Assembly: GCF_030013595.1 (NCBI RefSeq)
Contig: NZ_CP122768.1
Source: Escherichia coli
Lineage (GTDB): Bacteria > Pseudomonadota > Gammaproteobacteria > Enterobacterales > Enterobacteriaceae
Reading direction: 5' to 3' (one strand)
Length of the DNA: 64,000 bases
Shown: in pieces, positions 2,121 through 45,360 of the stretch
How the letters are laid out: each line of letters starts with the position of its first letter
How positions within the stretch are numbered: position 1 is the first letter of the stretch
Notes under the pieces: model-generated
Databases searched by the model: none
What the model was told of the DNA's origin: nothing
Seen by the model: the letters and a program-made list of their open reading frames with translations, nothing else
Program-made: the position numbers and the translations under genes

Positions 2121-5100
2121 TCAGCTGATACTGATGCCTGCGGTGGCTTTCTTCATCACCACAACCAGCAAATCGCTGATACTTGCTGTGGGATACCAGT
2201 TATTTACCAGCCATGCTGACACCGAAAACTCCAGTGTCATGTGACCGTGACCGGCAGGCATATCAATAACACCACTGTAAATCAGCGTATTATCCAGCGC
2301 GGTACGGTTATAAATTTCAGCACCGTTTTTCCGTACTATCAGACGGCATGAGGAGTAAATATCAGTATGCTCTTTCTCATGTTTAGCGCCGCTGAATGCC
2401 ACCGCCGGAATAACAATCTGCCGGTCAAACGGCTGATCGTCATAAACCCTGACGGTGATGGTCCCTGATGGCCACCGTTCCGGTGCACGGGAGTCCCGGG
2501 GGAAAGCTTTGCCCACTGTTTTAACGAGATCGCCTTCAATCTGGTTCGCGGACAGTTTTCCCAGAACCCGACAGTTCTCGTTAATCGTGACGTTGTTGAG
2601 CGTCCCGGAGTTCGCATTCACGTTACCGCTGATATCGGCATTTTTCGCCGTCAGCCGCCCGTCCGGTGTCAGGGAAAATGCCGGTGGATTTCCGCCGCTG
2701 GTAATGGTGGGAGCCGTCAGGCGTTTCAGGAACACGTCGTTCATGAATATCTGATCGCCCTGACCAACAAACATCGGCTTTGTGTTGCCATTCGCAGGAT
2801 TAATCATCGCAATCCGGTCAGCAGCCAGAAGCACCTGACTCTGCATACCTGCTGGCGTATTCTCAATACCGGCTCCGATACCCGCAATATAAAGGCGTCC
2901 GTCCTTCATCTGCTGCAGTTTCACGGCCCACATGCTGTTCAGGTTATTATTTGTATCAACCTGAACTTTCTGTATCTGCTGGATTGCCGCGCTCTGATTT
3001 TCCAGTTTCTTATTGACGGTCTGTGTGATTTCATTGCTGACATCCGTAATGGACGTCCTGATTTCAGCCAGGTCAGGCGCAAGCTGATCGTTATCAATCT
3101 GCGTCCACAGCTCCTGAGCCAGATGGGTTTTCCCTATCTCGCCTTTGAAAAAATCCAGATAGCCGGATGCGTCATCACTCGGCTGACCGACAGCCTCCAC
3201 GAATGCCGATTTGCCAACAGTGTTCACACTGCGAACGTAAAAATAATAATCATGGCCCGGCTTAATATTGATACTGGCAGCTATCCAGTACAGCGCCGTA
3301 CCAAGATAGCGCGCTGTGGTTTCAACCTGCCTGATATCCGCAATCCGCTTTTCCGAGAACCAGAACTCAAACTGTACCGTCGGATCATAAACGGCAAGAT
3401 GCGGCGTGGCGGTTATCTGAAAATAGCCCGGCGTCAGCTCAATCCGCGACGGTGCTGCCGGTGCGGCAATCCGGAACGATACCGATGCCGGATCGCCCTG
3501 CTGTCCCCACGCATTTACCGCCCGGACTGTCAGCCTGTAGTTCCCCAGCGCCAGCTGCCTGAAGCGGTATGTGGTTTCCGTCGTCCGGGCCGTGCTGACC
3601 AGCCGCTCACTGCCGTCATCGGCGGCCACGGTCAGGCGAAGCATAAAGCTCACACCCTTCACCACCTTCGGCGTGTCCCAGCGCGCCAGCACCTGATACT
3701 CCCCACTGTCTGCGGTGACTTCTGCGGTCAGGTGCTGCACCGCTGGCGGCGTGACACCATTCACCGTGCCGCTCTGGTCGCCGTCAAAGTGCGCCCCGTT
3801 ATCCACGATGGCTTCTTTCTCCGGTACATGCTGCACGGCAGTGATGGCATACGTGCCGTCATCGTTCTCACGGATACTCACACAGCGGAACAGGCGCTGG
3901 CGCAACGTCGGCAGCTTCAGCCCCCACACGCTGTATTCTGCAACGCCGTCAGGAACACGGCTCACTTTCACCTTCACACCGTCGGTGACGGACTGAACCT
4001 CCACGCTGACCGGATTGCCACTTCCGTCAACCAGGCTTATCAGCGTGGTACCGGAGGATGGCAGCGTGATTTCACGGTCGAGCGTCAGCGTCCGGGTCTG
4101 GCTGTTCACCGCCAGCACGCGCCCGCCGGTGCTGATACCGGCATAGTCATCATCGCAGATTTCAATGACATCGCCCGGCACATGGCGAAGCCCTTCTGCG
4201 CCCACGCTGAAATCCACGGTCTGCGTTTCCAGCAGTTCCGTTTTAATCAGCCACAGCCCGGCGCGGTGTGCCTGCCCCCGGCTGGTACAGCCAAAGGCAT
4301 CCATCTTCGTAACATTACGACCGTAACGGGCAATGGCCTGCGTATCTTCAACAAGCTCTGTCGCCGTCTCCCAGCCGTTATCCGGGTCAATCCAGTTCAC
4401 CTCAACGGCATTATGGCGGTCCTTCAGGGCGCTGAAGCTGTAGCGGAACGGCGCGCCATCATCCGGCATCACCACATTACTGCGGTTATAGGTCCACACC
4501 TTATCCGACGGTCGGTCCTGCACGAACGTCAGCGTCTGCCCGTTCCATACCGGCATACAGCGCATCGCCGAGCAGAAATCGCTGAGCACATCCCACGCCT
4601 TACGTTGTGTGGTCAGCCAGGCATTACAGGTGATGCGCGGCTCCGTGCCGCCAAAACCGTCCGGCACCGACTGGTCGCAGTACTGGCCGATGACATACAG
4701 CGCCCATTTATCCACATCTGCCGCACCAAGACGTTTCCCCATGCCGTAGCGCGGATGGGTCAGCATATCCCACAGACACCAGGCCATGTTGTTGCTGTAT
4801 GCTGGCTTAAACGTTCCATCCCAGATACCGCTGTATTGCCGCGTCTGCGGGTTATAGTTCGACGGCACCTGCAGAATGCGCCCGCGCAGATGATAATTAC
4901 GGCTCACCTGCTGGCTGCCGAACTGCTCCGAGTCCACCTGCACGCCGACCAGTGCCGTGTTCGGGTAGCACTGTTTCACATCTATAATTTCGGTGTATGA
5001 CGACCAGAGCGTTTTGTTCTGCAGCTGGTCTGTGGTGCTGTCCGGCGTCATCCTGCGCATCCGGATACTGAACGGGCGCGGCGGCAGGTTATCCACCACC

Positions 5101-5600
5101 ACCGAGGCCAGATACTGCGAGGTGGTTTTGCCCTTAATGGTGATGTCTTTTTCCGTCACCCAGCCACCGTTACGTTGTATCTGAACCAGCAGGCGGACTT
5201 CCGATGGATTCCTGTCACCCTTTGAGGTGGTTTCCACCAGTGCCTGCACACCGAAGGTAAAGCGCAGTCGGTCGATGTTTGCCGACGTGATGGCGCGGGT
5301 GATCGGCGTGTCGTATTTCACTTCCGTACCCAGCACCGTCTCGGAGCCGGAGGATTCAAATCCCTCCGGCGGAGTCTGCTCCTGCTCACCAGCCCGGAAC
5401 ACCACCGTGACACCGGCGATGTTGGTATTCCCCTCACTGTCCAGCACCGGCGTACTGTTCAGCAGCACGCTTTTTAATCCATCCACCGGACCTTCAATCG
5501 GCCCTTCACTGATGGCATCAATCACACTCAGCAACTGCGTGGATTTCAGGTTGTCCTTCGCTTCGCGCGGGGTATGCCCCTTACTGCTGCCTTTACCCAT
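2121..5600 (-). CDS. J: Tail tip / host-specificity protein J
   Basis: 1159 aa, starting [42 protein letters not shown]... and ending ...[17 protein letters not shown], lambda J-like. Position after I. Confidence 0.95.
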
Positions 5601-5660
5601 TCGTCACGCTCCATAAACGACAAAACCGCCCGCAGGCGGTTTCACATAAAACATTTTTCA

Positions 5661-6331
5661 TCAGCGACCAATCACCACAACCTGACCACCATCACCTTCA
5701 TCTGCTGTGCTGATCTCCTGAGATACCACCCGCGACCCCACACGCATTTCACCGTACAGAACGGGCAGGACATTGCCCTGGGCAACCATATTATCCAGTG
5801 AAGAAAAATAGGTGTTCTGTTTGCCGTTATCCGTTGTCTGTGTGCGGGGGTTTTGGGTTTAGGGGCCAGCATCTGCGCCACACCACCGAGCACCATACTG
5901 GCACCGAGAGAAAACAGGATACCGGTCATACCACCGGCCCCAATGGCTGCCCCCCATGCTGCAAGGGTGGCTCCGGCAGTAAAGAATGATCCGGCAATGG
6001 CGGCAGCCCCCAGAACAATCTGGAATACGCCCCCTGACTTGGCCCCGGCGACTCTGGGAACAATATGAATCACAGCGCCGTCAGGCAGAGTCTCATGTAA
6101 CTGCGCCGTTAACCCGGACGTGCTGACGTCCCGCCCGGCAATCCGTACCTGATACCAGCCGTCGCTCAGTTTCTGACGAAACGCCGGGAGCTGTGTGGCC
6201 AGTGCGCGGATGGCTTCAGCCCCCGTTTTCACACGAAGGTCGATGCGGCGGCCAAATCGTTGCAAATCCCCGTAAAGGCAGATGCGTGCCATTCCCGGTG
6301 ACGCCAGAGGGAGTGTGTGCGTCGCTGCCAT
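5661..6331 (-). pseudogene. I: Tail assembly protein I with apparent frameshift in an A4C5 tract (5846-5854)
   Basis: The N-terminal roughly 160 aa match lambda I (MAATHTLPLASPGMARICLYGDLQRFGRR...). After APKPKTP the listed frame becomes W/C/R-rich. The other frame (5661-5858) encodes QTTDNGKQNTYFSSLDNMVAQGNVLPVLYGEMRVGSRVVSQEISTADEGDGGQVVVIGR, which I recall as the lambda I C-terminus. Confidence 0.6.
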
Positions 6332-21252: not shown

Positions 21253-21945
21253 ATGTCCAGAGAAGGAACGTTAGATTTATTGCAAGAAGTTGAAGAAACC
21301 GTTGAAATATTAAAAGATACGCAACAAATAAAACCAGTAAAGGTTAAATCAATACTTGAAAATTTAAGAAGCGCATTAGAATACGTTGCGAATGATAGTT
21401 ATGAAAAACATACCACTAACCAATCAACCCCTCGGCCAAAAATTTATTTCCCATACGGCGAGAAAAAATTTTTAGATGCTTTCTTTATTAAAAAATTAAA
21501 CTGCCAGCAACCTGAATTATCTCCATTATATGCAGTTTTTGTTTCAATCCAAGACTATCAAACTGGTAATAACTGGCTTGGAATGATGTGTAACCTCACG
21601 AACGAAGCAAAACATAGGCAACCAATCCCATTGAGTGAAGATAGTATTGTTCGAGGAATAGATGTTAATATCAATGGGTTTGGATTAATTAAGGCAGATG
21701 CTACATCAAAAATCATTTTCAGAGATAATTTCACCAATGGACAGAGAATTGAAGACTTCACCATTGAAAATGGTAAAGTTGAAAAATCAGGGAACGGAAT
21801 ACCCATCAATATTAACATGACCGAAGAGAAAAAAATAAGATTCCACGGTACAGATTATGAGGTTATTCCTTTTGTAGAGTTATGTCTAAAAGAAATAAGA
21901 GATTTTGTTAATGAAGCATATGAAATTTTAGATGCCATTGAATAA
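21253..21945 (+). CDS. Hypothetical 230-aa protein, AT-rich moron in the bor position, antisense to the late operon
   Basis: The long ORF lies in a markedly AT-rich segment. A GGAG is 7 nt upstream of the ATG. An upstream TTCAAC-17-CATAAT promoter-like element lies at about 21163-21191. I recognise no family. Confidence 0.7.
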   Translation: MSREGTLDLLQEVEETVEILKDTQQIKPVKVKSILENLRSALEYVANDSYEKHTTNQSTPRPKIYFPYGEKKFLDAFFIKKLNCQQPELSPLYAVFVSIQDYQTGNNWLGMMCNLTNEAKHRQPIPLSEDSIVRGIDVNINGFGLIKADATSKIIFRDNFTNGQRIEDFTIENGKVEKSGNGIPININMTEEKKIRFHGTDYEVIPFVELCLKEIRDFVNEAYEILDAIE

Positions 21946-23201: not shown

Positions 23202-23498
23202 ATGAACGGTATAGATCCATTCAAACCAATCAGTAAGCAACTTGATGTGGTATTACCACAACTGATAAAACACGACGACCTTCTGGATAAAGTGTTGCCT
23301 TTTTATATTGCTGTTACCGCAAAATTATCAGGTAAAACTCGAGAAGAGGTTCTCAAATATAACATGCTGGCTTTAGAAACAATTTTTGGCTCAGAAAAAG
23401 CGGGAAAATCACCCAAAGAGCTGGCAGAATCTCAATTTGCTTATATGACAAATATAAGAGTATCCGAAATCTTTGATAAGCTACCAGACATTGAATAA
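23202..23498 (+). CDS. Hypothetical 98-aa protein (between endolysin and holin, opposite strand)
   Basis: AAGGGA lies 8 nt upstream of the ATG. The sequence is AT-rich and looks helical. A hairpin plus T-tract starts 6 nt after the stop. Confidence 0.55.
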   Translation: MNGIDPFKPISKQLDVVLPQLIKHDDLLDKVLPFYIAVTAKLSGKTREEVLKYNMLALETIFGSEKAGKSPKELAESQFAYMTNIRVSEIFDKLPDIE

Positions 23499-24079: not shown

Positions 24080-24155
24080 TGGTGCTGGTTAACGGACTTG
24101 AACCGCTACCCATTCGCTTACAAGGCGACCGCTCTACCATTGGAGCTAAACCAGC
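24080..24155 (-). tRNA. tRNA, hand-folded anticodon UGU (Thr)
   Basis: 76 nt. GCTGGTT acceptor; GCTC/GAGC D-stem; anticodon loop CTTGTAA; T-arm AGCGG-TTCAAGT-CCGTT; AACCAGC-A-CCA 3' end encoded. There is one G:A mismatch at 27:43. Confidence 0.75.
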
Positions 24156-24160
24156 ATATT

Positions 24161-24235
24161 TGGCGGGACAGCGTGGACTCGAACCACGATAAGAAGGTTA
24201 ACAGCCTTCCGTAATGACCTTTATACGACTGACCC
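24161..24235 (-). tRNA. tRNA, hand-folded anticodon GUU (Asn)
   Basis: 75 nt. Anticodon arm GAAGG-CTGTTAA-CCTTC; T-arm CGTGG-TTCGAGT-CCACG; CCA encoded. The acceptor stem has a T:T mismatch at 4:69 and the D-stem is weak. Confidence 0.65.
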
Positions 24236-24298
24236 AAATAAAAAATCCCGAAACCGTTGTGCAGGCTCTAACTATTACCTGCGAACTGTTTCGGGATT
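24236..24298 (-). terminator. tR-prime late terminator
   Basis: AATCCCGAAAC ... GTTTCGGGATT stem followed by a U-tract. The sequence is as in lambda tR-prime. Confidence 0.85.
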
Positions 24299-24432
24299 GC
24301 ATTTTGCAGACCTCTCAGCCTGCTATGGTTGGAGTTCCAGACGATACGTCGAAGTGACCAACTAGGCGGAATCGGTAGTAAGCGCCGCCTCTTTTCATCT
24401 CACTACCACAACGAGCGAATTAACCCATCGTT
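24239..24432 (-). ncRNA. 6S late leader RNA (pR-prime to tR-prime transcript, contains qut)
   Basis: The region is nearly identical to my recollection of the lambda 6S region. The length from the predicted start to the U-tract is about 194 nt. Confidence 0.7.
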
Positions 24433-24509: not shown

Positions 24510-25133
24510 CTAACGTGTGACCGCATTCAAAATGTTGTCTGCGATTGACTCTTCTTTGTGGCATTGCACCACCAGAGCGTCATACAGCGGCTTAACAGTG
24601 CGTGACCAGGTGGGTTGAGTAAGGTTTGGGATTAGCATCGTTACAGCGCGATATGCGGCGCTTGCTGGCATTCTTGAATAGCCGACACCTTTGCATCTTC
24701 CGCACTCTTTCTCAACAACTCTCCCCCACTGCTCTGTTTTGGCTATATCAACCGCACGGCCTGTACCGTGGCAATCTCTGCATCTTGCGCCCGGCGTCGC
24801 GGCACTACGGCAATAATCCGCATAAGCGAATGTTGCGAGCACTTGCAGTACCTTTGCCTTAGTATTTCCTTCAAGCTTTGCCACACCACGGTATTTCCCC
24901 GATACCTTGTGTGCAAATTGCATCAGATAGTTGATAGCCTTTTGTTTGTCGTTCTGGCTGAGTTCATGCTTACCGCAGAATGCAGCCATACCGAATCCGG
25001 CTTGTGATTGCGCCATCCCCATAGCAGCCATCACATCAGTACCGGAAAGAGAGTCAGAAGCTGTAGCCCGTGGTGAGTCGCTCATCATCGGGCTTTTTGG
25101 AGAATGAAATTTAGCTACGCTTTCGAGTCTCAT
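24510..25133 (-). CDS. Q: Late antiterminator Q (lambda type)
   Basis: 207 aa, MRLESVAKFHSPKSPMMSDSPRATASDSLSGTDVMAAMGMAQSQ..., with the zinc motif CRDCHGTG...CGRCKG. Confidence 0.95.
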   Translation of the reverse strand: MRLESVAKFHSPKSPMMSDSPRATASDSLSGTDVMAAMGMAQSQAGFGMAAFCGKHELSQNDKQKAINYLMQFAHKVSGKYRGVAKLEGNTKAKVLQVLATFAYADYCRSAATPGARCRDCHGTGRAVDIAKTEQWGRVVEKECGRCKGVGYSRMPASAAYRAVTMLIPNLTQPTWSRTVKPLYDALVVQCHKEESIADNILNAVTR

Positions 25134-31033: not shown

Positions 31034-31143
31034 ATGCCCTCCATAGTAACCTCGAATAAAAAATACAATATGTACTTTCCAAATACAAGCAAAAATACAC
31101 ATTGTGCATTGATGGTTCCAGTACAGAGCGTAATAATAAGGAC
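31034..31143. promoter_or_regulatory. OR/pR/pRM divergent control region with A(A/G)TAC-N5-GTAYT-type operators
   Basis: AATACAATATGTACT at 31062-31076, with related copies at 31082-31096 and 31094-31110. TTGATG-16-TAATAA ends 7 nt before the cI ATG, which suggests a leaderless cI mRNA as in lambda. Confidence 0.6.
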
Positions 31144-31803
31144 ATGAAAATGAAATGGTATGAACTGGCTAGATCCAGAATGAAAGAGCTCGGCATAACT
31201 CAAGAGAAGTTAGCCGAAGAGCTAGGTATGACGCAGGGTGGGATTGGACACTGGTTGCGCGGATCTCGTCATCCATCTCTTAGTGATATTGGTGTGGTGT
31301 TTAAATACCTTGGTATTGATAACATATCATTCAACCACGACGGGACATTTTCACCTGTTGGCGAATACTCATCGGCCCCAGTTAAAAAACAATATGAGTA
31401 CCCTGTATTTTCTCATGTTCAGGCTGGGATGTTCTCTCCAGAACTCAGAACCTTTACCAAAGGCGATGCGGAGAGATTGGTAAGCACAACCAAAAAAGCC
31501 AGTGGCTCTGCATTCTGGCTTGAGGTTGAAGGTAATTCCATGACCGCACCAACAGGATCCAAGCCCAGCTTTCCTGACGGGATGTTAATTCTGGTTGACC
31601 CTGAGCAGGCTGTTGAGCCAGGCGATTTCTGTATAGCCAGACTTGGTGGTGATGAGTTTACCTTCAAGAAACTGATCAGGGATAGCGGTCAGGTGTTTCT
31701 ACAGCCACTAAACCCACAATACCCAATGATCCCATGCAATGAGAGTTGTTCCGTTGTGGGGAAAGTTATCGCTAGTCAGTGGCCTGAAGAGACGTTTGGG
31801 TGA
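31144..31803 (+). CDS. cI: CI repressor: non-lambda N-terminal HTH domain fused to a lambda-type C-terminal LexA-like autocleavage domain
   Basis: The start is [37 protein letters not shown]. From [21 protein letters not shown] onward it is essentially lambda CI, including the Ala-Gly cleavage site, GNSM Ser and FKKL Lys. Confidence 0.9.
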
Positions 31804-31821
31804 TAGGAAGTAAGTTTTATG

Positions 31822-31850
31822 TTGACGGCACAGTCAACTTGGCATAGATT
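31822..31850 (+). promoter_or_regulatory. Promoter-like element TTGACG-17-TAGATT between cI and the NYN gene
   Basis: The hexamers and 17-bp spacing were read directly from the sequence. No experimental support. Confidence 0.4.
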
Positions 31851-31860
31851 AATTAAACCA

Positions 31861-31921
31861 AGCCCAGCCCCGTTCGCAGACAATTGTTAATATCTGCATA
31901 ACGGCTCTGGGCTATTTTTTT
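31861..31921 (+). terminator. Long imperfect hairpin followed by T7 (terminator/attenuator-like), 9 nt upstream of the NYN ATG
   Basis: AGCCCAG..CCGTT..GCAGA-caattgttaatat-TCTGC..AACGG..CTGGGCT, then ATTTTTTT. Confidence 0.6.
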
Positions 31922-31930
31922 GGGACTCTT

Positions 31931-32788
31931 ATGAAGAAAGCAGCAATTTTAATTGATGCGGGTTTTTTCATGCAGCGTGTTCATGCTACGCATCGTAAAC
32001 ACTTCGCCGAGCATGAACTGACTGCGCAATGCATAATGAAAGTAATATGGTCAATGGTTCTTTCCCATCTTAATGGAAAACGTCAATCACAAGAACGTAG
32101 GGAACCGCTTGAGCTTTATAGAATTTACTTCTATGACTGTCCACCACTCGACATTCAAACACGCCTTCCACTTCCTGAGCCTGGCAATAAGACGCCTGGT
32201 CGCAAGAATTTCAAACTCGAAAAATCATATATTCTGAGAACGGAGCTGCATGAAGAGTTAAGAAAAACTCGAAAAACAGCCTTAAGATTAGGGAATCTTG
32301 TTGATAATAAGCGATGGCAACTAACTACATTCTCCCTTGATGCTCTGATGAAAGGAACGAAAAAATGGGATGAACTGACAAATGATGATTTTTACTATGA
32401 CATCAAACAAAAACAAGTTGATATCAAGCTAGGGATGGATATCACGACTTTAGCTTATGAAAAACTTGTTGATGTAATTGTCCTTGTTGCTGGGGACTCA
32501 GACTTTGTGCCTGCCGCCAAACACGCCAGAATTAAAGGTATTGATTTTATTCTTGATCCACTAAGACAGAATGTTACCCCATCACTGTCAGAGCACATTG
32601 ATGGAGTTCAGTCATACAGCTTGATATCAGGACTTGCCGATGCTTTACATGTTGAGCCAGACCCGGCACCTGACTGGTGGGAAGATCGAAAAAAAGGCAA
32701 GCCTAGAGGAAAAAACAATAGCGGTAAACGCAGGTATGGAAACACTCAAGCTGAGTCAGCAAAGAAACATCAAAGAAATAAACGATAA
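31931..32788 (+). CDS. NYN/LabA-like (PIN-fold) putative ribonuclease with a Lys/Arg-rich C-terminal tail, in the rexAB position
   Basis: 285 aa with the motifs AAILIDAGFF, VDIKLGMDITT and VIVLVAGDSDFVPAAKHARIKGIDFIL. The tail is KKGKPRGKNNSGKRRYGNTQAESAKKHQRNKR. AT-rich. The family was assigned by eye only. Confidence 0.7.
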   Translation: MKKAAILIDAGFFMQRVHATHRKHFAEHELTAQCIMKVIWSMVLSHLNGKRQSQERREPLELYRIYFYDCPPLDIQTRLPLPEPGNKTPGRKNFKLEKSYILRTELHEELRKTRKTALRLGNLVDNKRWQLTTFSLDALMKGTKKWDELTNDDFYYDIKQKQVDIKLGMDITTLAYEKLVDVIVLVAGDSDFVPAAKHARIKGIDFILDPLRQNVTPSLSEHIDGVQSYSLISGLADALHVEPDPAPDWWEDRKKGKPRGKNNSGKRRYGNTQAESAKKHQRNKR

Positions 32789-32795
32789 TCCCATC

Positions 32796-32824
32796 AACCC
32801 GGCCACCGAGCCGGGTTTTCTTTG
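32796..32824 (+). terminator. Rho-independent terminator after the NYN gene
   Basis: AACCCGGC-caccga-GCCGGGTT followed by TTCTTT. Confidence 0.75.
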
Positions 32825-32996
32825 CCTCACGCCCCCACCTAAAGACACATAACCAAATGTATTTATTGAAAAATAAATAGATACAACTCACTAAACCACG
32901 CAATTCTGATCTCTCCTTACATCGCCGAGGCGATACACCCACGCTAAAAAACAACACTATTAAATACAAAGCGTTATAAAAAATCACCCCATTTTA

Positions 32997-33037
32997 GAAC
33001 AAATTGTATTGACCCAATAAAGTACATATCGTACTAT
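32997..33037 (+). promoter_or_regulatory. pL (TTGACC-17-TACTAT) with overlapping OL operators
   Basis: -35 at 33009-33014 and -10 at 33032-33037. The perfect inverted repeat AGTAC-atatc-GTACT lies at 33021-33035, and GAACAAATTGTATTG at 32997-33011. Confidence 0.7.
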
Positions 33038-33082
33038 TTAACCGTCAGCAGGACGCTGTAAGCCAAACGGAGCAGACTGGCA

Positions 33083-33227: not shown

Positions 33228-33500
33228 ATGTCCAGAAAAACAGAATTTAAAGGCACCGCAGCTTCTCGCCGTAGAGCTCGTCGTGCAAACCTGCAAAGTC
33301 AGGAGGCGATCAGCTCTGACAAGCTACACAGGCCAACCCCTTCACGAGTGGTCTTACAATGCAAACGCAAACCAGTAATGAGAGCAGAAGTAATAACACT
33401 GACAACGTTGACCAGAAAATATGAAGGCTCAACTTGTCTTCCAAATGTAGCCATTTACGCGGCAGGCTACAGGAAATCCAAACAGCTGACAGCAAGATGA
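33228..33500 (+). CDS. N: N-type antitermination protein (Arg-rich motif; P22 gp24-like C-terminus)
   Basis: The start is refined to MSRKTEFKGTAASRRRARRANLQSQ, with a GGAGG SD. The C-terminus LPNVAIYAAGYRKSKQLTAR resembles P22 gp24 as I recall it. Confidence 0.75.
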   Translation: MSRKTEFKGTAASRRRARRANLQSQEAISSDKLHRPTPSRVVLQCKRKPVMRAEVITLTTLTRKYEGSTCLPNVAIYAAGYRKSKQLTAR

Positions 33501-33558: not shown

Positions 33559-33645
33559 ATGGAAGAAGAATTTGAAGAGTTCGAAGAGCATCCTCAGGAT
33601 GTGATGGAACAATACCAGGACTATCCGTATGACTACGACTATTGA
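33559..33645 (+). CDS. Candidate 28-aa highly acidic/aromatic peptide overlapping the ral start
   Basis: MEEEFEEFEEHPQDVMEQYQDYPYDYDY. A GAGGTGA SD lies 5-11 nt upstream. It is below the ORF-track size cut-off. Confidence 0.35.
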   Translation: MEEEFEEFEEHPQDVMEQYQDYPYDYDY

Positions 33646-33829
33646 TACAAATCAATGGTGTGGACAATTCAAACGATGCAATGGATGCAAGCTGCAATCG
33701 GAATGCATGGTTAAGCCTGAAGAAATGTTTCCTGTAATGGAAGATGGGAAATATGTCGATAAATGGGCAATACGAACGACGGCAATGATTGCCAGAGAAC
33801 TTGGTAAACAGAACAACAAAGCTGCCTGA
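33629..33829 (+). CDS. ral: Ral restriction-alleviation protein
   Basis: 66 aa, MTTTIDTNQWCGQFKRCNGCKLQSECMVKPEEMFPVMEDGKYVDKWAIRTTAMIARELGKQNNKAA. Confidence 0.9.
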   Translation: MTTTIDTNQWCGQFKRCNGCKLQSECMVKPEEMFPVMEDGKYVDKWAIRTTAMIARELGKQNNKAA

Positions 33830-43098: not shown

Positions 43099-45360
43099 TT
43101 ACATCTGACGGTTTTTATTGAAGTTAATCAAACTACCCGCCTTGATAATCTCGCGCTCTTCGGCCGTCAGGCTTTCCATGTAAAGCGTAATTTCCGTTAC
43201 CGGCGCATCTTCATGGATCACATAACCTTTAAACGTCGTACCCGGATTATCCAGCGCTGCTTTAATGCCAGGGATGTAAATGTAATCCCCCACTTCAAAC
43301 GTTGGTGCTTCCGCCATCTGCAGCGGTAACATCCCCCAGTTGATGACGTTAGAACGGTAGCGTTTAGTCGCGTACTCCTCGGCAATATTCGCCAGACCGC
43401 CAATCACACGCTGGCAGCTCGCCGCCTGCTCACGCGCAGAACCATCGCCTGGTTTCACCGCATAGACCATGCTGCCAATTTCAGTTTGCAGCGGATCAAT
43501 ATGCTCCTGACCAGCAATCTGCTTAATGCGCGCAAACACCTCTGTCAGCTCGCTGACATTCCCCGCCAGACGCTGATTTTCCAGCTCAGCAGTCGCTTTA
43601 CTTCTGCCAACATAACCTGGATCGCGGCGTGACAGGGTAAACTCCGCCAGACCAATCGGATTTGAACGATAAGAAGAGGTTTCACCGGAAGGGATCAGTT
43701 CGTCGGTGGTGGTCACTTCGTCGAGGATCTTCGAGCACACTTTGAGGACGATATTGTCAGTTAGCGCCCCCAATTCTGGCCAGTCTTTTATGTTCGGTCC
43801 GTAAATCAATGGTTGCTGGGTCGCCCCTTTCACAAAGCCCTGATAAACACGGTTTTTATACGGAGTTACATCGAAGGCGTACTCCGGTACGTTGTCCCAG
43901 CAATCAAGTTCGCTGGCAGAGGTTAAATAGCCACCGTTTGCCGCAGTCGCAGCGATAGAACGAGCGTCCATCAACGCCACCGCTGACATCTGCCCATTGG
44001 CTGGCTTAGAGCCTTCGCGGTTCGGGAAGTTACGCGTGGTGTGGCGAATACTCAAACCGTTGTTGATTGGCGTATCGCCCGCGCCAAAGCATGGGCCGCA
44101 GAACGCGGTTCTGATGATTGCGCCTGCGCCAATCAAATCTGCTACCACGCCTTTTTTGGCTAAATCCATAAACACCGGCTGTGATGACGGGTAAACCGCT
44201 AACGAGAAGGTGTCATTGCCACAGGATTGACCGCGCAGCGCATTCGCCGCCGCGATGACGTTTTCATAGTTACCGCCAGAACAGCCCGCGATAATCCCCT
44301 GCTGCACTTTCAGGCGACCATTTTCCACTTTATCCAGCAGCGAGAGTTTGGCTTTACCGTGCGCCACGCGTTCGGACTCAATTTCAATCTCACGCAGAAT
44401 ATCGGTCAGGTTCTGGTTCAGCGTGTCGATTTCATATACGTTGCTCGGGTGGAACGGCAGCGCAATCATTGGTTTGATGGCGCTTAAATCAACGCTGATG
44501 CAGCCATCGTAGTATGCCATCGGTTGAGGGTTAAGCTGGCAGTAATCCTGGCCGCGTCCGTGCAGCGCCAGCCAGTTATGGACTTCTTCATCGGTTTGCC
44601 AGACAGAACTTAAACAGGTCGTTTCAGTGGTCATAACGTCAACGCTGTTACGGAAATCGGTAGAGAGCGCAGCAACACCGGGACCTACGAATTCCATCAC
44701 TTTGTTTTTGACGTAGCCGTTTTTGAACACGGCACCGATGATAGCCAGCGCCACATCCTGTGGCCCCACATACGGCGCAGGCTTTCCGGTCAAATGCACC
44801 GCAACAACTCCCGGATAGTCGATATCCCATGTGTCATTAAGCAGCTGTTTTACCAACTCACCGCCACCCTCACCGACTGCCATTGTCCCTAATGCACCGT
44901 AACGGGTGTGGCTGTCTGACCCGAGGATCATTTTGCCGCCGCCTGCCATCATCTCACGCATATATTGATGGATGACCGCAATATGCGGAGGCACAAAAAT
45001 ACCGCCATAACGCTGAGCCGCCGATAAACCAAAAACATGGTCATCACCGTTAATGGTGCCGCCGACGGCGCAAAGTGAGTTATGGCAGTTGGTCAGCACA
45101 TACGGCAGCGGGAAACGTTCCATACCGGACGCTTTAGCGGTCTGTACAATACCAACAAAGGTAATATCGTGAGAGGCTAATGAATCAAACTTAATTTTAA
45201 GTTTATCCATATTTCCGGACGTATTATGAGAAGAGAGAATAGACCAGGCAATAGTGCCTTTTTTTGCTTCTTCTTTTTTAATTTCGCCGGTGAAATGTTC
45301 TTCGGCAATTATTTCGTTATTACTGGCGAGAAACACGCCTTTTTCAGATAACTTGATCAT
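43099..45360 (-). CDS. ybhJ: YbhJ, aconitase-family protein
   Basis: The start is refined to [23 protein letters not shown] (753 aa). It has aconitase motifs (GSDSHT..., CGPCFG). Confidence 0.85.

Follow-up and report, generated by a model that had tools for sequence, protein, structure and literature searches.

In phage lambda, the slot between the repressor gene cI and OL/pL holds rexA-rexB, which are co-transcribed with cI. The type III systems ToxIN, CptIN and TenpIN, which are mobile and anti-phage, consist of a promoter, an antitoxic RNA, a terminator that sets the ratio of RNA to mRNA, and an endoribonuclease toxin (PMC12373285). A related order is found in AbiF-RCd22 of the C. difficile phi027 prophage, where a SigA promoter drives a conserved non-coding RNA (ncRNA) with a Rho-independent terminator and read-through leads into the toxin gene; RCd22 lowers toxin transcription 17-fold in cis and neutralizes the toxin in trans by direct binding (PMC12373285). 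In lysogens, the short PR'-tR' transcript is also present, and short terminated prophage transcripts can act there as small RNAs (sRNAs), as does StxS of Stx phages (PMC7547250). Here we describe a cassette in the cI-to-pL slot of a lambdoid prophage, carried on a 64,000-nt stretch of Escherichia coli contig NZ_CP122768.1 (assembly GCF_030013595.1; hereafter the window), in which a predicted promoter and a conserved leader RNA precede a gene for a 285-aa NYN-fold (PIN-like) nuclease. The new element is the leader RNA family, together with its kinship with the lambda terminator tR'.

The original prediction, made from the letters of the window, had placed a single AT-rich open reading frame (ORF) at the lambda rexAB position, and this placement is correct: the ORF list and the sequence show one long ORF (31931-32788, plus strand, 285 aa) filling the slot on the same strand as cI and between cI and OL/pL, with a G+C content of 0.38-0.43 vs ~0.5 in the adjoining phage genes. 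That prediction did not mention the 127-nt spacer between cI and the ATG, which holds a promoter-like site and a strong hairpin followed by U7. The features of the cassette, and a second member of the hairpin family elsewhere in the window, are as follows.

31804-31821, plus strand: left edge of the exchangeable cargo unit, set by blastn junctions against phages 1717 and 2G7b
31822-31850, plus strand: cassette promoter of sigma-70 type, predicted by consensus scan (-35 TTGACG at 31822-31827, 17-nt spacer, -10 TAGATT at 31845-31850)
31859-31921, plus strand: leader RNA element, a three-tier hairpin plus A+U7 (RNA folding free energy, dG, -25 kcal/mol, z -5.7; covariance model R1, 83.2 bits)
31922-31925, plus strand: weak Shine-Dalgarno-like GGGA right after the U-tract and 5 nt before the ATG, read from the sequence
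31931-32788, plus strand: NYN-fold (PIN-like) nuclease gene, 285 aa
32796-32824, plus strand: intrinsic terminator of the slot, from a terminator scan (8-bp G+C stem, 6-nt loop, UUUUCUUUG; dG -14.5, z -3.5)
24237-24299, minus strand: late-operon terminator tR', second member of the hairpin family (R1 63.9 bits, E 1e-14; dG -26.9)

The leader hairpin is 53 nt long and is built of three stems, P1 (31861-31867/31907-31913), P2 (31870-31874/31900-31904) and P3 (31876-31880/31893-31897), closed by a 12-nt loop, CAAUUGUUAAUA, and followed by A+U7 at 31914-31921, so that the U-run ends 9 nt 5' of the ATG at 31931. Transcription is predicted to start near 31857, ~4 nt 5' of the hairpin. The predicted order is thus promoter (31822-31850), hairpin with U7 (31859-31921) and ATG (31931), with no promoter between the terminator and the ORF. 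Relatives that share 46-100% protein identity with the window protein (type A) have the same promoter-hairpin-ORF layout whatever gene lies upstream, with the hairpin ending 15-39 nt before the ATG, and relatives repeat the arrangement of U-run, GG(G)A, 5-8 nt and ATG. An equivalent promoter, TTGACx-17(+/-1)-TAnnnT, is found in 29 of 29 representative cassettes, 8-12 nt before the hairpin (17-18 nt in one clade), and the remaining upstream sequence of these cassettes is diverged. A palindrome at the -35 region (TTGAC-N6-GTCAA) was considered as an operator and set aside, being present in only ~9 of the 29 cassettes. The prophage sRNA svsR, at the 3' end of cI (PMC12803456), is a different element and lies inside cI.

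Conservation of the leader was assessed on 20 distinct sequences from Enterobacterales, Pseudomonas, Pasteurellaceae and Acinetobacter. In this alignment 95.9% of cells are paired, as against 25-44% in slid controls, and compensatory changes occur in 13 of 17 pairs. Covariance model R1, built from NYN leaders only, finds exactly one strong match per locus, directly 5' of the ORF, in all 76 of the 76 type-A loci, including those in which the ORF is truncated or deleted. The element matches no family in Rfam 15 (E<=1), either in the window or in 9 diverse loci, and no RefSeq annotation lies beneath it in 274 E. coli genomes. When the window is compared with relatives at 70-88% protein identity, third codon positions are saturated (37-46% identity to the window), first and second codon positions retain 78-90%, and the 60 nt upstream of the hairpin retain 50-67%, vs 92-100% for the 39-nt hairpin interior, that is, P2, P3 and the loops. 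Because this interior, unpaired loops included, is conserved far beyond the needs of termination where third positions are saturated, and because distant homologues keep the hairpin, the leader probably has a sequence-specific partner and is more than a terminator; the nuclease is the ligand partner that we infer.

In these distant homologues, among them members from Bacteroidota, Acidobacteria, Elusimicrobia, Betaproteobacteria, phage phiE202 and the Firmicute phage Javan85, a hairpin occupies the equivalent position. Their 'type B' leaders (sites at 3400-3465 of locus L005, 3370-3480 of L006 and ~2900-3000 of L097-L166) combine a P1 of 8 bp with an internal loop that is conserved, (C)AGUA(M)GC / GCCGA(N)CC, and some have weak U-tracts. 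Their P1 is 89% paired with compensatory changes in 5 of 8 pairs, and the MAFFT alignment of the inner stem is rough. The internal loop recalls the loop-E/sarcin-ricin AGUA/GA motif.

Applied to the lambda genome (NC_001416), R1 matches 44720-44782 at 62.4 bits, a position that we take from the lambda map to be the 3' end of 6S RNA, that is, tR'. tR' is an established, efficient intrinsic terminator. The corresponding site of the window lies downstream of a lambda-type Q gene (24510-25133, minus strand) and upstream of tRNA-Asn, tRNA-Thr and holin genes, with no NYN gene after it; it and the leader have similar folding energies (dG -26.9 vs -25), and a U run follows both. To judge by these model matches, the NYN leader and lambda tR' are one RNA family. 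Since the leader is homologous to an established terminator, efficient termination is to be expected there, including of transcripts that arrive from cI. The tRNA-Asn(GTT) and tRNA-Thr(TGT) genes of the window (24080-24235, minus strand) directly follow tR', at the place that tRNAs and stx occupy in Stx phages.

A pattern scan of IMG/VR recovered 119 hairpins, which fall into two clean classes. In the NYN-leader class (n=33) an NYN gene comes next in 33/33 and a lambda-type Q lies upstream in 0/33. The tR' class comprises ~86 nearly invariant copies, of which 81 have a lambda-type Q upstream, 4 have too little upstream sequence to tell and 1 has no such Q; an NYN gene follows none of them. In phage ev099 the cassette is identical, but the Q gene is a different one and a second copy of the hairpin is lacking, and therefore the cassette does not depend on the presence of a same-type tR'. 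Gating of the cassette by Q, or targeting of the prophage's own tR', was rejected on the evidence of this same phage. The two settings also differ in layout: tR' lies ~130 nt downstream of PR', is overcome by qut-bound Q and precedes lysis genes, whereas the cassette promoter is 8-12 nt from its hairpin and the leader precedes the NYN gene. No qut- or nut-like element was recognized in the NYN cassettes. What the cassette would share with tR'/6S and with StxS is a constitutive promoter that yields a short terminated RNA in lysogens, a property that is described for the former and predicted for the cassette.

The original prediction had assigned the protein to NYN/LabA-like PIN nucleases, and profile search and fold comparison both agree. 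Pfam NYN (PF01936) matches at 36.8 bits, above the cut-off of 24.2 (E 6.8e-9), over profile positions 72-119 only; the same domain is carried by all listed homologues, and TIGR00288 (NYN) gives a weak match to the window protein. Residues 1-258 form the structured core, a three-layer alpha/beta/alpha PIN-like fold that is superposable on solved NYN domains, and the Lys/Arg-rich C-terminal tail (~259-285) is disordered. The motifs named earlier are present exactly, namely AAILIDAGFF, QVDIKLGMDITT, VIVLVAGDSDFVPAAKHARIKGIDFIL and the Lys/Arg tail. In an alignment of 37 sequences, with identity down to 41%, D9, D164, D170, D189 and D191 and a basic RKxALRxG motif are invariant and the tail is variable; the five Asp are candidate catalytic or metal-site residues. 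The protein is most likely an NYN-fold metal-dependent endonuclease and, by family, an RNase. It shares only 15-18% identity with the NYN domain of MARF1 (5yaa) and with VPA0982/LabA-like (2qip), and differs from both in ~100 extra structured residues (an insert at ~70-160 that includes the invariant RKxALRxG), in its basic tail and in its phage-cargo context. A PDB sequence search with the window protein gave no significant match. In PHROGs it belongs to phrog_5783 (E 1.5e-119). No Rex family is among its Pfam, PADLOC or PHROG matches. That the architecture had not been recognized as a named defense system is also borne out: in PADLOC the window protein matches HEC-09 and 'NYN' PDLC01154 at E 2e-4 and 1.4e-3 over 40-46 residues, short of a full-length match, and the best value among the 37 family members is E 5e-6.

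Comparison with phages that share the same cI and N genes and carry other cargo (1717 and 2G7b) delimits the cassette. By blastn, homology ends at 31801-31804 and restarts at 32792-32796, and because it breaks and resumes at these junctions the swapped unit is 31804-32791, comprising promoter, leader and ORF. For the same reason the 3' terminator at 32796-32824 is part of the common backbone. A strong terminator of the ORF's own had been proposed here; the hairpin and T-run do exist, but they are common to phages with other cargo. In place of the NYN cassette, phages 1717 and VT2-Sakai have a 173-aa ORF and 2G7b has a 283-aa ORF, neither of which has a Pfam or PADLOC family. The slot is a hotspot for cargo, and the unit 31804-32791 is a prophage cassette that is self-contained and is exchanged horizontally. 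In O121 Stx2a phages it follows a different cI plus a DUF3024 gene. The DUF3024 gene of these phages (3639-3980 of locus L003; 4511-4849 of L012) is the PADLOC candidate PDC-S43 (E 7e-42). In AU5Stx1 the 5' part is kept up to 32024, together with the last ~120 nt of the ORF, and the middle is deleted.

The protein family is large (7034 protein clusters at E<=1e-5, nearly all of 250-290 aa), and 558 confirmed IMG/VR stretches carry it. Identical or nearly identical copies occur in phages ev099, E212, EC.P3 and 2B8 and in ~48 Stx2a-converting phages; in a P22-like Proteus phage a copy of 74% identity comes after the repressor, and in Burkholderia phiE202 (P2-like) and Streptococcus Javan85 copies of ~40% identity adjoin the integrase or repressor. 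The gene thus accompanies differing immunity regions. Among 79 IMG/VR loci, 21 of the 40 distinct upstream neighbors are same-strand S24/HTH repressors and 2 of the 40 are DUF3024 genes that themselves follow a repressor, the rest being holin, Q, methylase or integrase genes. E. coli carries the gene patchily: a match is present in 276 of 5426 complete genomes and is full length in only 73. In ~200 O157:H7 genomes the NYN gene is cut after ~127 codons by IS1203/IS629, with promoter and leader 100% identical; this truncated copy lies in a CP-933H-like remnant beside thrW/proA (4128-5750 of locus L002). The sRNA table of O157 Sakai from Hfq-CRAC has no entry at coordinates starting 3055-3057, and the Sakai coordinate of the truncated CP-933H-like copy is not established. 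RefSeq splits the intact gene into a 'partial hypothetical protein' and a shorter 'NYN domain-containing protein' (4128-4985 of L001 in strain 214-4; 4128-4985 of L003 in O121:H19 FWSEC0006). A frameshift or pseudogene was rejected as the cause, since a comparison of the 214-4 DNA with the window shows a single substitution and no indel, which makes the split an annotation artefact.

The prophage of the window is lambdoid and lies in reversed orientation relative to the usual lambda map: by ORF list and Pfam, the minus strand carries P, O, cII and cro, and the plus strand carries cI and N. The slot is bounded by the following features.

31144-31803, plus strand: cI-type repressor gene, left slot boundary (Pfam Peptidase_S24 1.8e-28, HTH_3 2e-10)
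32963-33040, plus strand: OL operator-like palindromes AATACA..TGTAYT, right slot boundary; inverted repeats also at OR (31057-31078)
33009-33037, plus strand: pL-like promoter, from a promoter scan
33228-33500, plus strand: antiterminator N gene (Pfam N_peptide 2.2e-32)

The cI reading frame is open from TTG 31102, with a probable start at ATG 31144 or 31150. The apparent cI operators are AATACA-N3-5-TGTAYT palindromes, 2-3 of them at OR (31057-31110) and 3 at OL (32963-33040); the inverted-repeat scan confined them to OR and OL and found none near the NYN cassette promoter. Shortly 3' of N lies the antirestriction gene Ral (33629-33829, plus strand; Pfam Ral, E 1.7e-48). Elsewhere in the prophage, two ORFs (21253-21945, plus strand, 230 aa; 23202-23498, plus strand, 98 aa) are encoded opposite to the lysis genes around them; neither has a Pfam or PADLOC family, and the two may be extra cargo.

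We tentatively favor, with a probability of about 0.45, a reading in which the cassette encodes a terminator-gated and probably toxic NYN RNase, for which the leader RNA is also a specific partner, and which is used in conflict between phages. In a lysogen, the cassette promoter would fire constitutively. Most transcripts would end at the hairpin as a ~65-nt leader RNA, as would those arriving from cI, and rare read-through alone would yield nuclease mRNA, such that a potentially toxic RNase is held very low. The leader could then serve as a ligand of the nuclease, either as an autoregulatory operator or as an RNA antitoxin acting in cis and in trans. When the balance is upset, as might happen if an infecting phage shut down transcription in the host, the nuclease would be freed, RNA cut and the infection aborted. 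The context is that of a conflict module, with cI-type repressors as 21 of the 40 distinct upstream neighbors, with carriage in P22-like, P2-like and streptococcal lysogeny modules, and with PDC-S43 as slot-mate cargo. Several points weigh against this proposal. The cassette promoter is a consensus prediction only, and neither a trigger nor an antitermination factor can be named. Lambda tR' functions without an NYN protein, so the hairpin can be a terminator only. There is one hairpin and no tandem-repeat RNA, unlike in classical type III antitoxins. PADLOC matched no validated defense family, and phrog_5783 is annotated as of unknown function; moreover HEC-09, which is a different family and the only phage-tested NYN defense candidate found in the accessible literature, protected against none of the phages tried. 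Another literature match on NYN in phage defense proved to use 'NYN' for codons. Lastly, a chromosomal and syntenic clade of the family in Rhodanobacteraceae, near a pseudouridine synthase, lacks the U-run leader. A wider claim, which we consider doubtful, is that the cassettes constitute an undescribed, type III-like RNA-gated toxin/Abi (abortive infection) system, in which a single hairpin is both gate and antitoxin, spread across temperate phages of Proteobacteria, Firmicutes, Bacteroidota and other phyla, with tR' as a domesticated orphan RNA.

The leader could instead be nothing more than a strong insulator and terminator that ends the cI transcript and throttles the NYN RNase, with no specific partnership between RNA and protein, though the nuclease might still act in exclusion. 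This is unlikely. In its favor, the hairpin is very stable and is followed by U7, the same hairpin family acts as lambda tR' where no NYN gene is present, and the hairpin persists after loss of the ORF in AU5Stx1 and in the IS-truncated O157 copies, as expected of a cI terminator. A pure terminator does not account for loop and internal-loop nucleotides that stay 92-100% conserved where synonymous sites are saturated, nor for the movement of the hairpin with the ORF into repressor-less slots beside holin, Q, integrase and methylase genes, nor for type B leaders that keep their internal loop across phyla even with a weak U-tract. The original prediction saw a gene like rexAB that lysogens would transcribe along with cI, from pRM/pRE, and that would serve as a constitutive single-gene exclusion nuclease. 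Strand and slot are indeed those of rexAB, and the position right after cI-type repressors is recurrent; yet a tR'-class terminator (dG -25, U7) separates cI from the ORF, the cassette brings a predicted promoter of its own, conserved in position in 29/29 cassettes and free of cI operators, and cassettes are also found away from any repressor gene. Expression together with cI thus does not fit the locus, and we regard a rexAB-like gene as very improbable.

Two further explanations retain an RNase and give it other work. As an addiction or regulatory module of the prophage, which we think improbable, the cassette would be an RNA-antitoxin/RNase-toxin stabilizer, or its RNase would trim the prophage's own lytic or late transcripts (e.g. 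tR'-type leaders) to tune lysogeny and induction. The architecture does resemble type III toxin-antitoxin systems and AbiF-RCd22, the cassette sits in the lysogeny module, and the window's own late leader has a hairpin of the same family. But ev099 has the identical cassette with no second hairpin and a different Q, and the O121 Stx2a phages likewise have other immunity regions; therefore self-targeting of tR' cannot be general. The last alternative, lysogenic conversion or housekeeping in which the enzyme processes host tRNA, rRNA or mRNA with no role in conflict, draws on the Rhodanobacteraceae. In Rhodanobacter, Dyella and Frateuria (loci L104-L144, ~2900-5400) a LysR-type regulator, the NYN gene, a ~350-aa ORF and a pseudouridine synthase gene follow one another, the clade is chromosomal, syntenic and vertically inherited, and only a simple G+C hairpin, with no U-run, comes after the -10. 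To judge by this clade, some members of the family may process RNA for the cell, and processing RNases are known among NYN enzymes, PRORP and Rae1 being examples. As an account of the cassette itself it is quite improbable, given the temperate-phage cargo slots of Enterobacterales, Pseudomonas, Firmicutes and Bacteroidota (558 IMG/VR stretches) in which the gene sits behind a terminator gate, and its patchy presence in E. coli, where the 5426 complete genomes hold only 73 copies of full length.

If the leader controls or neutralizes the nuclease, as in the favored reading of a gated RNase with an RNA partner, an NYN/PIN-like effector and a new RNA motif would join the few RNA-regulated Abi modules (ToxIN, AbiF-RCd22). 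Such a system would be widespread, with 7034 clusters, many of them in prophages that include the E. coli O121 Stx2a phages. Lambda tR', a standard model terminator, would be linked to leaders that in all other cases stand before an NYN gene. On the practical side, annotation needs correcting: RefSeq genomes split or mis-annotate the intact gene, and the leader is unannotated and has no Rfam family.

Among described systems, AbiF-RCd22 (abiF motif RF03085) is similar to the cassette in being a single-protein module carried as prophage cargo, with an RNA co-conserved with its protein family, and in the layout, predicted for the cassette, of a constitutive promoter, a terminating ncRNA and rare read-through to an RNA-targeting protein. 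The two differ in fold, that of AbiF being Abi_2/HEPN-like and that of the cassette protein NYN/PIN-like, and their RNA motifs are unrelated, with Rfam finding no abiF motif at the cassette. RCd22 has two motifs and a separate terminator, whereas the cassette has one 53-nt hairpin that is itself the terminator. Toxicity, action in cis and in trans, and binding are demonstrated for AbiF-RCd22 and are predictions for the cassette. Type III systems share with it the order, again predicted here, of promoter, RNA, intrinsic terminator and nuclease ORF, as well as mobile carriage. Their antitoxin RNAs consist of tandem repeats that the toxin itself processes, and their toxins have ToxN/Kid-like folds instead of NYN; a search of 31600-33000 found no tandem repeats, and there is a single hairpin per locus, so the cassette is not a classical type III system, a departure that AbiF-RCd22 shares. 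HEC-09, a PADLOC candidate, shares the NYN domain and a candidate defense context, but it has an N-terminal IF2B/5-like domain and is embedded in Hma loci, and the window protein matches it over 46 residues only (E 2e-4). Lambda rexA-rexB occupies the same slot and strand as phage-dispensable cargo, but comprises two genes with no homology to the cassette, is not a nuclease and is co-transcribed with cI, whereas a terminator and a separate predicted promoter intervene here. BstA resembles the cassette in being determined by one prophage gene, located in the cargo slot next to the repressor in lambdoid and P22-like phages; it is an unrelated protein and an experimentally tested Abi factor, and its self-immunity comes from a DNA element, aba, and not from a leader RNA (PMC8585504).

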